Part shown: positions 57,612 through 60,768 of the stretch, in pieces
Layout of the letters: every line of letters starts with the position of its first letter
Numbering within the stretch: the first letter of the stretch is position 1
Sequence record: PV682947.1
DNA from: Escherichia phage WPEC4
DNA: 64,000 bases
Strand: one strand, 5' to 3'
The notes under the pieces: model-generated
What the model saw: the letters and a program-made list of their open reading frames with translations, nothing else
Database searches by the model: none
Told to the model about the DNA's origin: nothing
Position numbers and translations under genes: made by a program

Positions 57612-57666
57612 TTGATCCCGTTTTATATTGTGTTATAGTTATTGTGTAGGGCGGCAATGGTGCCGC
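57612..57666 (+). promoter_or_regulatory. Early promoter (TTGATC 57612-57617, TATAGT 57634-57639) plus 5' hairpin 21-mer GTAGGGCGGCAATGGTGCCGC at 57646-57666
   Basis: First exact copy of the 21-mer; stem GCGGCA/TGCCGC around loop ATGG. Confidence 0.55.
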
Positions 57667-57686
57667 GCCCCTTTGAGGATGAAACC

Positions 57687-57971
57687 ATGAGTAAAGCTAA
57701 CACCGTGCTAATGTTTTCCCTGGTTAATGATGCCGCTTACTTGTCCAACATGACGCAAGATGATAGCACATTAACGGCAACATTTACCGATGGACTCAAC
57801 AGAGTGATCATCGTATCATTGAAAACGATTAGTAAAGGCTTTTACTCGTTGGCTTATCATTGGGTAACAGACAGCGACGAGACAAGCCAGGACTATAGCG
57901 CCCCGTTCCCTGAATCAATGGCACGGGAGATCATCGCCGCCGTTGTAAATGATGGTTTGTTTACTGCATAA
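57687..57971 (+). CDS. hypothetical early protein (94 aa)
   Basis: ATG after GAGGATGAAACC, in frame of track ORF 57642..57971. Confidence 0.5.
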   Translation: MSKANTVLMFSLVNDAAYLSNMTQDDSTLTATFTDGLNRVIIVSLKTISKGFYSLAYHWVTDSDETSQDYSAPFPESMAREIIAAVVNDGLFTA

Positions 57972-57989
57972 AATAATTTAGAAAAAGGC

Positions 57990-58050
57990 TTGCAATCGTT
58001 TTGAGATAGTGTATATTTAATTCATAGGGCGGCGGGAATAGTTCCCAAGG
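57990..58050 (+). promoter_or_regulatory. Early promoter (TTGCAA 57990-57995, TATATT 58012-58017) plus GC-rich hairpin 58027-58050
   Basis: Variant hairpin GGGCGGCGGGAATAGTTCCC. Confidence 0.45.
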
Positions 58051-58069
58051 CAAACGAGAGGATTACACG

Positions 58070-58189
58070 ATGAGCAAGTACACAGTAGAATACACGGTAG
58101 AAAATCCGGCAGTATCCGAAGGTAAAAAGATGACATTTGCCATCAGTATAATCGCTTTCGTTGTCACTATCTTATCAATCATCTTATAA
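58070..58189 (+). CDS. small membrane peptide (39 aa)
   Basis: Hand-translated; GAGAGGA ribosome-binding site; C-terminal hydrophobic segment MTFAISIIAFVVTILSIIL. Confidence 0.4.
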   Translation: MSKYTVEYTVENPAVSEGKKMTFAISIIAFVVTILSIIL

Positions 58190-58199
58190 GGTGCATACC

Positions 58200-58361
58200 A
58201 TGAAAACAGCAGACATTATCAAAGAGATCGCCCTTGCCGCTGACGTTGAAATCGAGGAAATGATCGCGCTCAATCTTACAGAAAACGATCTGCGCAACTA
58301 TGAAGCGGAAAGCGTGAAAGCAAGCGGCGCGGTCCTGGCATATAATCCAGCTAACAAATAA
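58200..58361 (+). CDS. hypothetical small protein (53 aa)
   Basis: ATG at 58200 in frame of track ORF 58161..58361. Confidence 0.4.
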   Translation: MKTADIIKEIALAADVEIEEMIALNLTENDLRNYEAESVKASGAVLAYNPANK

Positions 58362-58362
58362 T

Positions 58363-58417
58363 TTGACAAGCTGAATCAACCTGATAAGATGTATCCCGTA
58401 GGGGCGACAAGCGCCCC
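58363..58417 (+). promoter_or_regulatory. Early promoter (TTGACA 58363-58368, TAAGAT 58385-58390) plus hairpin GGGGCG-ACAA-GCGCCCC
   Basis: 16-nt spacer; hairpin about 10 nt after the -10 box. Confidence 0.55.
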
Positions 58418-58438
58418 GCCTAACAGAGAGATGAAATC

Positions 58439-58717
58439 ATGACCATCGTTAAATTAACAACCGAAGAAATGAAAACAATGTTAACCACTAATTTACAAAA
58501 TTGGAAAATTGGTGTTGACGTTGAAACAGTGTGCAAGTTGAACGACAAACTAACACCAGACGACATTGCAACGATCATTGATGCTAATTTCTATGATGTT
58601 TTACATGATGATTCCATTAGTTTTGAAATAGTGTTAGATAACACTTGGATCGATCCTGGTTTGTCGGTTTATGGTCGGCTTGCTTTCGATGCAATCCACA
58701 ATGTTTATAATCGTTAA
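58439..58717 (+). CDS. hypothetical early protein (92 aa)
   Basis: ORF track; promoter and hairpin upstream. Confidence 0.55.
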   Translation: MTIVKLTTEEMKTMLTTNLQNWKIGVDVETVCKLNDKLTPDDIATIIDANFYDVLHDDSISFEIVLDNTWIDPGLSVYGRLAFDAIHNVYNR

Positions 58718-58726
58718 GGGGATAGT

Positions 58727-58837
58727 ATGAATCCTAGAGATATGCAATCTTGGAAAGGGTACGACGATCTAAGCGCCTTGCGCAATAAATCAAGCCGTAA
58801 CCTTAGACGGTTGGAAGCAAAGAAAAAGAAAAAATAG
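58727..58837 (+). CDS. small basic protein with Lys-rich C-terminus (36 aa)
   Basis: Hand-translated; AAGGGGA ribosome-binding site. Confidence 0.35.
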   Translation: MNPRDMQSWKGYDDLSALRNKSSRNLRRLEAKKKKK

Positions 58838-58838
58838 T

Positions 58839-58894
58839 TTGACAAGCCTGTTTAATCTGGTAATATTCATCTTGTAGGGCGGCAATGGTGCCGC
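58839..58894 (+). promoter_or_regulatory. Early promoter (TTGACA 58839-58844, TAATAT 58861-58866) plus 21-mer hairpin at 58874-58894
   Basis: Second exact copy of GTAGGGCGGCAATGGTGCCGC. Confidence 0.6.
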
Positions 58895-58916
58895 TCACAA
58901 GAAGAGAGAAAACATT

Positions 58917-59201
58917 ATGAAAATCACAAAAAGCCTAACTAATTATGCAGCACGTCGCGGATTATGCTTGACCGTTGAAAACTTAGGGAAAGAAGACTTT
59001 TTGTGTTTTTGGGAGCTTGAAAATGATAATGAGTGGATTTTCTCTTATTCCATTTGCGAAGATCAAAACGGTTGTTTGTTAACCTGGCGCGGTAATATCT
59101 ATTTACCGCAAGAAATCAAGGAAGAGTTACCAGGTACGATCATGACAGAAAGACAGCTTAAGGAAGTGATCAACTTTGTAGGGCAAAACATTAAAAAATA
59201 A
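58917..59201 (+). CDS. hypothetical early protein (94 aa)
   Basis: ORF track. Confidence 0.55.
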   Translation: MKITKSLTNYAARRGLCLTVENLGKEDFLCFWELENDNEWIFSYSICEDQNGCLLTWRGNIYLPQEIKEELPGTIMTERQLKEVINFVGQNIKK

Positions 59202-59202
59202 T

Positions 59203-59262: not shown

Positions 59263-59285
59263 TCACAACAGAAGAGAGACACACC

Positions 59286-59456
59286 ATGATCCCGACTATG
59301 TTTTATGTATCGCGCAAAGGTCACAATATTTTTTGGTCTGAAGATTTAAATGAAGCTATGACGTTCGCCCGTGATCGTGTCGCTATCGGTGGCGTTAACA
59401 TCACTGTAACCGATGAAAATGGCATTGAATACTATAACGGCGACGATGAAGAGTAA
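59286..59456 (+). CDS. hypothetical small protein (56 aa)
   Basis: Hand-translated ORF after AGAAGAGAGA. Confidence 0.45.
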   Translation: MIPTMFYVSRKGHNIFWSEDLNEAMTFARDRVAIGGVNITVTDENGIEYYNGDDEE

Positions 59457-59462
59457 TCAACA

Positions 59463-59484
59463 AGGCGGGATTAATCCCGCCTGT
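59463..59484 (+). repeat. GC-rich hairpin GGCGGGAT-TA-ATCCCGCC
   Basis: 8-bp perfect stem between two small genes; no T-tract. Confidence 0.5.
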
Positions 59485-59500
59485 ATTAAAGGGTAATATA

Positions 59501-59638
59501 ATGAAAACTTTCAACGCAACAGCCTCGACAATTGGTTATATTATTACAGTGCAAGCCGTGGACCTGGTAGCAGCAGCAAACAAGATTAAAAGAATGATCC
59601 CGCCAGGTAGTGAATTTTCCGTTTGGGAAGTAAAATAA
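59501..59638 (+). CDS. hypothetical small protein (45 aa)
   Basis: Hand-translated ORF. Confidence 0.35.
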   Translation: MKTFNATASTIGYIITVQAVDLVAAANKIKRMIPPGSEFSVWEVK

Positions 59639-59641
59639 ATC

Positions 59642-59703
59642 TTGACAATAGTTTGTTACTTGATAGAATGTATTTCGTAGGGCGGGGCAATAAGGCAACG
59701 CCC
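59642..59703 (+). promoter_or_regulatory. Early promoter (TTGACA 59642-59647, TAGAAT 59664-59669) plus hairpin GGGCG...CGCCC at 59680-59703
   Basis: Variant of the 21-mer (GTAGGGCGGGGCAATAAGGCAACGCCC). Confidence 0.55.
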
Positions 59704-59721
59704 ATTAATGAGGGTAAAATC

Positions 59722-59826
59722 ATGTTAGAAAAAATTTTCACGGTTGTAATCATTGGTCTGACTTTATCGGTTGGAGTGGTTGCAACTATGGCTAATATGA
59801 TCCTATCTTCTCACGGTATCGGTTAA
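59722..59826 (+). CDS. small hydrophobic membrane peptide (34 aa)
   Basis: ATG after GAGGGTAAAATC in frame of track ORF 59623..59826; sequence MLEKIFTVVIIGLTLSVGVVATMANMILSSHGIG. Confidence 0.4.
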   Translation: MLEKIFTVVIIGLTLSVGVVATMANMILSSHGIG

Positions 59827-59836
59827 GGTGAAACAA

Positions 59837-59998
59837 ATGATCACGAACAAAACAGGCAAAACGGAATTTTTACGCGGCTTACAAGTTGGCAAGCCTGAGA
59901 TCTGGCATTGCACGAAGTCCGCACACAATGAAATGAAAGACTTTACCGCTAGTTTACAACGTGTTAAAATATCTATTACGCAGAAAAAGCCTTATTAG
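59837..59998 (+). CDS. hypothetical small protein (53 aa)
   Basis: Hand-translated; AAGGTGA ribosome-binding site. Confidence 0.4.
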   Translation: MITNKTGKTEFLRGLQVGKPEIWHCTKSAHNEMKDFTASLQRVKISITQKKPY

Positions 59999-60047
59999 TA
60001 GTAGAAAATGAGATCCCGCAAACTATTATTATTGTCGAGCGTACAGC

Positions 60048-60434
60048 ATGAAAACAGAAATCATTATTGAAATCATCAACGGCTATAAAGAAGCCTTTAT
60101 TTTTGCTGAATCAGCAAGGGATCATGAAGGTAATTTTATTGATAACTTAGACGATTATGATTTTTCTCCTAGCGCGGACGAACGGATCGCCCAGGATGTA
60201 ACAGCCTTTATTAATGCTAATCTTGCCGCTATCTCTGAGGCAATGAGCGACGGCGCAACAGCCAACCAGATCGGGAATGATTTACATTTTACCCGTAACG
60301 GTCACGGCGTAGGATTTTGGGATCGCCCCGAAATATACACCACTAACACGGCTAACCGTTTAAGCAATGCCGCTAAATTCATGCCTGAGATATCCGCTTA
60401 TGTTGAAGAAGATAATTTGATTTATATTGAATAA
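60048..60434 (+). CDS. hypothetical early protein (128 aa)
   Basis: ORF track. Confidence 0.5.
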   Translation: MKTEIIIEIINGYKEAFIFAESARDHEGNFIDNLDDYDFSPSADERIAQDVTAFINANLAAISEAMSDGATANQIGNDLHFTRNGHGVGFWDRPEIYTTNTANRLSNAAKFMPEISAYVEEDNLIYIE

Positions 60435-60440
60435 ATAGTA

Positions 60441-60496
60441 TTGACACAGATCGCCAGTGTGATAATATTTACCACGTAGGGCGGCAATGGTGCCGC
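60441..60496 (+). promoter_or_regulatory. Early promoter (TTGACA 60441-60446, TAATAT 60463-60468) plus 21-mer hairpin at 60476-60496
   Basis: Third exact copy of GTAGGGCGGCAATGGTGCCGC. Confidence 0.6.
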
Positions 60497-60517
60497 TCAC
60501 TGAAAAAGGTAAACACT

Positions 60518-60709
60518 ATGAAAACTATCACCTACCTGGAATCGAATAACATGTTTTTTGCCCCCGTTGATGAAATCATCGAGGCATTAAACAACGAGGA
60601 AGGGATCAAAGGTTTATCTTATGGTCAACTTTTAGAAATGGTTGCAGCTAATGAAGAGCTTGCTTACTATGTTGAAAATTTTGATGAAGCTGTAATCTTT
60701 ACAAAATAA
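60518..60709 (+). CDS. hypothetical early protein (63 aa)
   Basis: ORF track. Confidence 0.5.
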   Translation: MKTITYLESNNMFFAPVDEIIEALNNEEGIKGLSYGQLLEMVAANEELAYYVENFDEAVIFTK

Positions 60710-60712
60710 TCC

Positions 60713-60768
60713 TTGATCTAATCTCTTAGATAACTTATATTTAATGCGTAGGGCGGCAATGGTGCCGC
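60713..60768 (+). promoter_or_regulatory. Early promoter (TTGATC 60713-60718, TTATAT 60735-60740) plus 21-mer hairpin at 60748-60768
   Basis: Fourth exact copy of GTAGGGCGGCAATGGTGCCGC. Confidence 0.55.

Follow-up and report, generated by a model that had tools for sequence, protein, structure and literature searches.

In the 64,000-nucleotide (nt) stretch of Escherichia phage WPEC4 DNA analysed here (PV682947.1; hereafter the window), the 21-mer GTAGGGCGGCAATGGTGCCGC occurs as four exact copies on the + strand, at positions 57646, 58874, 60476 and 60748. Our main conclusion, to which we assign a probability of roughly 0.6, is that this sequence encodes a 5′-terminal mRNA stem-loop with a putative stabilising role, transcribed as part of a repeated promoter cassette, and that the cassettes double as the homology by which small genes are shuffled. 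The 21-mer is best explained as the first 21 nt that would be transcribed from a family of near-consensus sigma-70 promoters, read by the host RNA polymerase. These promoters drive tiny genes of unknown function in a variable and presumably early block. The window is from a phAPEC8-like myovirus of the genus Phapecoctavirus, subfamily Stephanstirmvirinae.

The four copies had been noticed in a preliminary description of the same DNA and were found again at the same positions. None was obtained in 100 shuffled sequences, 0 being expected by chance, and a search of the window allowing up to 3 mismatches gave no sites beyond the four exact copies. Each copy had been placed about 7 nt downstream of a -10 hexamer; the distance was found to be 6–7 nt (the hexamers being, in order, TATAGT, TAATAT, TAATAT and TATATT), and a paired -35 hexamer, TTGATC or TTGACA, is also present at a spacing of 16–17 nt. 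The copies start ~40 nt 5′ of a start codon, and the 3′ end of each lies 20–25 nt before an ATG with a Shine–Dalgarno (SD) sequence. The stem GCGGCA/TGCCGC around the loop ATGG is as previously described. The conclusion that this is not a CRISPR array also holds, on the basis of the spacings between successive copies (1228, 1602 and 272 nt) and of intervening open reading frames (ORFs) equipped with ribosome-binding sites of their own. At its longest, the unit shared between copies spans 54 nt, with the 21-mer at its centre. What had been overlooked is that the 21-mer is one part of a repeated promoter cassette of ~85 nt.

The anatomy of the cassette can be read directly from the DNA (Table 1). 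A/T-rich DNA with a preceding stop codon (for example, aaaaataaTTTGACA and attgaataaatagtaTTGACA) is followed by the -35 hexamer, 16–17 nt, a -10 hexamer that is often TG-extended, a discriminator of 6–7 nt ending in AC, the motif RTAGGG(C/G)G, a GC hairpin, an unstructured A-rich spacer (often TCACAACAGAAGAGAGA), the SD sequence and ATG. Each gene or gene pair has one such cassette. Between 57.6 and 62.3 kb there are nine near-consensus sigma-70 promoters that match the consensus at 9–11 of 12 positions; the -35 is TTGACA in six, and the -10 is TG-extended in several. The cassette ORFs encode 34–128 amino acids (aa); nine of the ten scanned match PHROG families of unknown function, and one matches no family. 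Two further promoters that had escaped the preliminary description separate the parts of the 21-mer: the promoter at 62223 has GTAGGGC without a hairpin, and the promoter at 1592 has GTAGG followed by tRNA-Gly. Because RTAGG is kept at both, the first 5–6 bases belong to the promoter class; therefore, RTAGG is the promoter part, and the rest of the 21-mer is the hairpin.

Folding was evaluated on a leader set of 187 cassettes, comprising 84 distinct leaders, from the cassette blocks of 12 phages. Through the flanks GUAGG...UCAC, which had previously gone unnoticed, pairing reaches nucleotide +1 in the 58874 and 60476 copies; the predicted fold of these TCAC-flanked copies is ((.((((((((....)))))))))), at -15.1 kcal/mol (z = -4.7). 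Median values for the 84 leaders were -14.3 kcal/mol for the fold and -3.6 for z, with pairing mostly starting at +1 to +6. If transcription starts at the R of RTAGGG (the 7th to 8th base after the -10), 0–5 unpaired 5′ bases would be left. The hairpin is stable despite the variety of its stems: at least 10 stem classes were found, at -12 to -17 kcal/mol, among them GCGGCA/TGCCGC, GCGGGAA/TTCCCGC, GCGGGAAA/TTTCCCGC, GCGGCGGA/TCCACCGC, GGGGCG/CGCCCC and GGGCG...CGCCC. Across phages, the same downstream gene was preceded by 2–6 hairpin versions of different classes, all of them stable.

The arms of these hairpins fit each other, and they do so as RNA of one strand. When arms were swapped between versions, the median weakened to -10.7 kcal/mol, compared to -14.5 kcal/mol for the native pairs. 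The wobble pairs on the sense strand comprised 13 G·U and 0 U·G, and in 28 of 33 versions the sense strand folded better than its complement. Across an alignment of six phages, conservation of the leader was 95–100% in four of five orthologous slots, compared to 87.5% for third codon positions; in the fifth slot, the hairpin had been replaced wholesale.

The element is restricted to one strand and one block. The region 57521–61500 is ~94% identical to many phAPEC8-like phages, and in the complete phAPEC8 genome the core motif TAGGGCGG was found at 10 sites, all on the + strand, at 143.7–147.7 kb and 0.5–3.2 kb, that is, in one ~10-kb block of tiny ORFs spanning the record ends. A covariance model of the leader, run against 373 kb made up of the window, the phAPEC8 genome in full and ten further phage loci, gave 176 matches, nearly all on the sense strand and inside cassette blocks, with no match in the window outside 57.6–60.8 kb. 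Of the 27 perfect GC hairpins listed, 11 lie in the 5.1-kb block, where such hairpins are denser than elsewhere in the window. The 85-nt cassette had no match among 5,426 E. coli genomes, and it matched 143 phage records, those listed being of the rV5/phAPEC8/phi92 group or having genomes of ~130–160 kb. In the Vequintavirus EdH4, the layout of promoter followed by hairpin is kept and the sequences differ.

Comparison of the window with 11 relatives showed that cassette ORFs come and go. Phages ESCO37, phAPEC8 and tuntematon do not have the 63-aa ORF that lies between the 60476 and 60748 copies (an indel of 272 bp), and they have a single hybrid cassette in which the 60441 promoter of the window leads into the 21-mer and then into the right flank of the 60748 copy. 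In phage vB_Ec-G1, the 61096 and 61378 hairpins are merged into one hybrid, and the 78-aa ORF between them is absent (an indel of 282 bp). Homology to eight relatives ends exactly at 62265, the last base of GTAGGGC; in different phages, three unrelated leader-plus-gene modules follow GTAGGGC at the 62223 promoter, and homology returns at 62701–62719, the terminator that forms the right edge of this replaceable last module. These are three clean indel or replacement junctions inside repeats, and the three events show what appears to be recombination between repeats, for which the nearly identical cassettes would provide the homology. The homology of several relatives also breaks at the 59463..59482 hairpin. 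Of 28 breakpoint clusters, 14 fell in the elements, more than expected over the whole region (p = 6e-6). The coincidence of the repeats with junctions of gene gain, loss and replacement had been missed in the preliminary description; as judged from these alignments, the 21-mer copies mark where small genes are gained, lost and swapped between related phages.

The repeat was already annotated, in another sense. In the phAPEC8 record JX561091, the same 20-mers are labelled "putative promoter determined with PHIRE" (for example, 556–575, 1787–1806 and 3202–3221), an annotation that had not been taken into account; immediately beside two of the PHIRE 20-mers, the record also carries a "host dependent promoter". 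Some records label such hairpins ARNold terminators, and the phi92 record has only ribosome-binding sites annotated at the cassette region. In the literature, we found no paper with the 20-mer or calling it a leader hairpin or a shuffling cassette in this phage group, and nothing relevant for PHIRE with PVP-SE1 or for a promoter, stem-loop or transcriptome of Phapecoctavirus or Vequintavirinae. The repeat has been on record since 2012 as a promoter, and its description as a leader hairpin and shuffling cassette is apparently new for this group, as far as the papers we found go.

The function that we propose for the hairpin is modelled on the 5′ stem-loops of the ompA/papA type, which stabilise E. 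coli mRNAs (Emory, Bouvet and Belasco 1992, as listed in PMC3997798). As in that type, a stable hairpin lies within a few nt of the (here predicted) 5′ end, and structure rather than sequence is expected to matter, which matches the many stem versions found here. The differences are that the hairpin is multiplied here in a mobile promoter cassette, that the 5′ ends are predicted and that some leaders have 3–5 unpaired bases. In the proposed mechanism, transcription would start at the R of RTAGGG, and the nascent RNA would fold to leave 0–5 unpaired 5′ nt. The hairpin would then shield the triphosphate end and so hinder RppH and 5′-end-dependent RNase E, lengthening the life of early mRNAs, and it would insulate the downstream ribosome-binding site from context effects. 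A further role between cistrons is suggested by the promoterless hairpins and by read-through transcripts: leader and promoterless hairpins alike may act there as barriers or processing boundaries. Recombination between cassettes would delete, insert or exchange the ORF between copies and would swap hairpin versions among slots, as proposed for the promoter-early stem-loops of T4-like phages described below.

Several results weigh against this interpretation. Column covariation was weak on the model-fitted alignment, in which 78.6% of the cells were paired and 2 pairs had changed on both sides, and in a covariation count the alignment slid by one column scored higher than the true register. 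The stems are not uniform in length or register, and through their common descent the copies are not independent. MAFFT alignments of the leaders put unequal stems out of register, and weight was therefore placed on per-sequence folding, the arm swap and strand asymmetry. Many leaders have 3–5 unpaired nt, which is the limit reported for protection. The motif RTAGGG is kept without a hairpin at 62259 and at the tRNA promoter (1628), and the 21-mer therefore partly serves the promoter. The placement of the hairpin at the 5′ terminus is predicted from promoter geometry, and three promoterless hairpins cannot be primary 5′ ends. Finally, when breakpoints were compared to intergenic DNA alone, the enrichment in the elements disappeared (p = 0.76); beyond the three clear junctions, the case for a recombination hot spot is therefore unproven.

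Four other explanations were considered, each of which we judge less likely than a leader hairpin. The one that survives best, although it is still unlikely, is that the hairpin is mainly an attenuator, terminator or 3′-end barrier for upstream transcription and that its position after the start is incidental. It draws on the promoter-early stem-loop (PeSL) cassettes of the T4-like phages RB49/phi1, PST/T4 and nt-1/KVP40 (Arbiol 2010, PMC2839356; Comeau 2014, PMC4122927), in which the stem-loop, interpreted as a terminator, is found upstream of, within or just before the start, and in which recombination between units was proposed to drive ORF exchange (PMC2839356, PMC4122927). Apart from this reading, the present cassettes and PeSLs are alike in several respects: a repeated intergenic unit of ~100 nt contains an A/T-rich stop-codon stretch, a sigma-70 promoter, a GC stem-loop, an SD sequence and a start codon, the units sit together in a variable block whose small ORFs have unknown functions, and indel or replacement junctions between close relatives (here, three clear ones) fall in or beside the units. 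In favour of an attenuator, PeSL stem-loops without an obvious U-tract cut downstream lacZ as strongly as rrnB T1 (PMC2839356), three hairpins of the window lie between genes without a promoter, and some records carry the terminator labels mentioned above. However, it is TCACAA, CGATAA or a similar sequence, and not a T-run, that comes after the leader hairpins, whereas the two true terminators of the block both have one, and a terminator at +4 to +25 would equally halt the cassette's own transcript. The hairpin was never upstream of the promoter in ~70 distinct promoter-linked leaders, where a pure insulator could be, as in PeSLs. Unlike in PeSLs, the stem-loop here is consistently placed after the predicted start, from +1 to +6 onwards in essentially all copies, and would belong to the cassette's own mRNA; an extra conserved start motif, RTAGGG(C/G)G, is present, and the lineage is Stephanstirmvirinae and not T4-like. 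Excised mini-circles and terminator activity are ascribed to PeSLs.

An element acting at the DNA level is improbable, be it an operator through which a phage or host protein shuts off the early promoters or a phage-specific promoter as annotated in phAPEC8. The 6-4-6 palindrome does lie at +6 to +21, a position at which a dimer on the DNA would obstruct RNA polymerase, and the sequence RTAGGGCGG is kept even when the distal stem has changed. However, the arms vary yet stay mutually complementary, whereas one protein would need a single consensus half-site, and the wobble pairs work only in sense-strand RNA. The preliminary description had offered a stabilising 5′ stem-loop or the binding site of a regulator; the placement and the hairpin of the former hold, with stabilisation itself a proposal, whereas the latter is disfavoured because both arms change together. 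The phage-specific promoter has the JX561091 label in its favour, but the identical 20-mers that were read there as promoters are placed here in the transcribed leader after a sigma-70 promoter: the 20-mer abuts a near-perfect promoter of this kind and is only 20–25 nt away from the start codon, too short a distance for another promoter to have its own leader, and no RNA polymerase is listed in the phAPEC8 annotation.

It is more improbable still that the hairpins are structure-specific recombination or nuclease sites, attC- or REP-like, at which a dedicated phage enzyme mobilises ORF cassettes. A REP consists of GTAG plus a GC-rich palindrome, and the layout here resembles it; crossovers occur inside hairpins, one hairpin of phAPEC8 (145.9 kb) is chimeric, and phAPEC8 has a Resolvase-domain protein ~13 kb downstream. 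By analogy only, short structured palindromes that flank genes, keep structure over sequence and are associated with recombination are common to REP, attC and the present elements. On the other hand, the stems here are much shorter and are tied to promoters, ATAG is as common as GTAG, the cassette has no copies in the E. coli genomes, no Y1 transposase or integrase was found, a "transposase-like" protein has no Pfam match, and homologous recombination over 20–35 identical bases fully explains the junctions. A REP/RAYT system in particular was rejected, as there are no host copies, GTAG is not invariant and there is no Y1 transposase. Least probable of all is a nut- or put-like antitermination signal made up of the hairpin and a conserved CGCUCACAAC tail: the hairpin is immediately 3′ of early promoters and the tail CGCUCAC is faintly similar to boxA (CGCUCUUA), but half of the copies, including 57646 and 60748, are without the tail, the order of hairpin and tail is the reverse of that in nut, nearly every gene has its own promoter so that long-range antitermination is hardly needed, and a search of 57000–64000 on both strands gave no Rfam match at E <= 1.

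If the leader-hairpin interpretation is correct, the "PHIRE promoters" in GenBank should be corrected to transcribed leaders and some "terminators" to leader hairpins, and a simple rule would be at hand to find host-dependent early transcription units in a large, therapeutically used group of coliphages. The idea of a promoter-plus-stem-loop cassette would be extended from T4-like phages to an unrelated lineage, which would point to a common way in which lytic phages turn over small accessory genes that are expressed on arrival. The leaders would also be compact natural parts (strong promoter, 5′ hairpin and ribosome-binding site) for possible use in phage engineering or expression design. A wider generalisation, which we put forward tentatively and consider doubtful as a whole, is that units of promoter plus hairpin, rather than being peculiar to T4, serve large lytic phages in general as an active device for exchanging cassettes. 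The hairpin of rV5-, phAPEC8- and phi92-like phages would then at once protect the mRNA, mark a boundary and be a preferred crossover, possibly via a structure-dependent step or excised mini-circles, and ORFans would move between genomes ready for expression, like integron cassettes. Related to this, and equally tentative, the invariant 5′ RUAGGGCGG could be a tag for a phage factor controlling the fate of all early mRNAs together.

Table 1. Promoter cassettes, promoterless hairpins, terminator-like hairpins and the tRNA promoter of the window (coordinates are window positions).
Feature	Position	Strand	Promoter (-35; spacer; -10)	Start region	Hairpin	Downstream gene and context
Cassette 1	57612..57689	+	TTGATC at 57612; TATAGT ending at 57639	21-mer, 57646-57666	stem 57651-57666	SD GAGG; ATG 57687 (94-aa ORF)
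Cassette 2	57990..58072	+	TTGCAA; TATATT	ATAGGGCGGC (also given as ATAGGGCGGCGGG) at 58024	58034-58046, GGGAA-TAG-TTCCC, weak	ATG 58070
Cassette 3	58363..58441	+	TTGACA; 16 nt; TAAGAT	GTAGGGGCG at 58398	58401-58417, GGGGCG-ACAAG-CGCCCC	ATG 58439
Cassette 4	58839..58919	+	TTGACA; 16 nt; TG-TAATAT	21-mer, 58874-58894, then TCAC	predicted pairing from nucleotide +1	ATG 58917
Cassette 5	59203..59288	+	TTGACA; 17 nt; TAAAGT	ATAAGGCGGG at 59239	59244-59262, GCGGGAA-GTGGT-TTCCCGC; other versions in orthologous slots of relatives	ATG 59286
Cassette 6	59642..59724	+	TTGACA; 16 nt; TG-TAGAAT	GTAGGGCGGGG at 59677	59680-59703, interrupted: GGGCG..GC-AATAAG-GC..CGCCC	ATG 59722
Cassette 7	60441..60520	+	TTGACA; 16 nt; TG-TAATAT	21-mer, 60476-60496, then TCAC		ATG 60518 (63-aa ORF, no PHROG family); left repeat of 272-bp indel
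Cassette 8	60713..60790	+	TTGATC; 17 nt; TATATT	21-mer, 60748-60768	60752-60769, 7-bp stem	ATG 60788; right repeat of 272-bp indel
Cassette 9	62223..62304	+	TTGACA; 17 nt; TATTAT	GTAGGGC, 62259-62265	absent	ATG 62302
Promoterless hairpin	59463..59482	+			AGGCGGGA-TTAA-TCCCGCCT	7 nt after stop of 56-aa ORF, before 45-aa ORF (ATG 59501)
Promoterless hairpin	61096..61111	+			GGGGCG-GTAA-CGCCCC	follows stop of 99-aa ORF; left repeat of 282-bp indel
Promoterless hairpin	61378..61393	+			GGGGC-CGTAAC-GCCCC	right repeat of 282-bp indel
Intrinsic-terminator-like hairpin	62055..62084	+			T-run present, in contrast to leader hairpins	inside block
Intrinsic-terminator-like hairpin	62701..62719	+			AGGGCGC-TTAAT-GCGCCCT, then TTCTTTTT	ends cassette block
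tRNA promoter	1592..1632	+	TTGACA; 18 nt; TATAGT	GTAGG at predicted start		tRNA-Gly 1633-1706 directly after

The variants of the 21-mer listed in the preliminary description exist, but the conserved motif begins 3–5 nt earlier than had been written (at 58024, 58398, 59239 and 59677), and three of the variants (59463, 61096 and 61378) are hairpins without a promoter. These three have a common left flank, TAAYCA..., which contains the upstream stop codon. As for the tRNA promoter at 1592, the precursor of tRNA-Gly would have a leader of only 5 nt for RNase P to remove; the predicted tRNA-Gly transcript and the mRNA leaders are built alike, with a 5-nt tail and then a GC stem.

Some individual hairpins in other genomes were also noted. 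At phAPEC8 145935, the chimeric hairpin, GCGGCGGAATGG joined to TTTCCCGC, combines the 5′ arm of class E with the 3′ arm of class C; it has a bulge and a G·U pair, folds more weakly (-12.4 kcal/mol) and looks like a crossover in the loop. The sole match of the leader model in phAPEC8 outside the block is at ~121.9 kb on the - strand, before a gene for a TerC-like membrane protein, and adjoins an annotated host-type promoter. The Resolvase-domain protein of this phage, phAPEC8_0049, lies at 16627–17298 of the stretch examined and is annotated as a "putative site-specific recombinase" (Resolvase N-terminal domain, E = 5e-18); such a serine recombinase could bear on the inversion of the window described below or on cassette exchange. 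In EdH4, a second cassette type has its -35 hexamer inside a hairpin, GATGGCC-TTGACACC-AGGGCCATC, followed by TAAACT; in the stretch examined, it occurs at 817–898, 1438–1528, 1773–1848 and 5152–5244, and it corresponds to the subclass of PeSLs with a stem-loop overlapping the -35 box.

A scan of IMG/VR for TAGGGCGG-N6-16-CCGCTCAC gave 65 stretches, mostly single chance matches in unrelated contigs, and was uninformative. The exact 21-mer occurs once in each of three related GC-rich, prophage-like IMG/VR contigs (36–61 kb). It directly follows a 781-aa tape-measure-like gene, the TAG stop of which is part of GTAG, and no sigma-70 promoter is present; this is probably chance or convergence in GC-rich DNA.

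The gene order of the window is unlike that of every related record. Positions 1–2782 correspond to phAPEC8 58870–61731, positions 2782–57520 to phAPEC8 118701 back to 61738 (inverted), and positions 57521–64000 to phAPEC8 431–6736, so that, relative to phAPEC8, ~29.5 kb is absent at the 57520/57521 junction, including the upstream half of the cassette block. The segment 56400–58400 is contiguous in 0 of 72 matching records; its left part is 100% identical to ESCO37, 536P1 and WPEC1, and its right part is ~94% identical to ESCO37 and most relatives and 100% identical to WPEC1. The arrangement is either that of a real rearranged recombinant or an assembly or scaffolding artefact. WPEC1 (PV659873.1, 1–9545) is 100% identical to the window over 57521–59272 and 60893–64000, is without 59273–60892 and has two extra upstream copies of a ~155-nt piece (window 60812–60969). 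The WPEC records are 155–161 kb long and match in 12–13 scattered places, which suggests that assemblies in this group are scrambled.

Beyond the terminator that ends the cassette block, positions 62720–64000 are an A/T-rich stretch of ~1.3 kb without a convincing ORF, with many AATAATCATT-like repeats and with the 42-nt arms of an inverted repeat at 62727–62768 and 63775–63816 (74% complementary). This stretch corresponds to the "non-coding" box of rV5 and may be an origin or packaging region.

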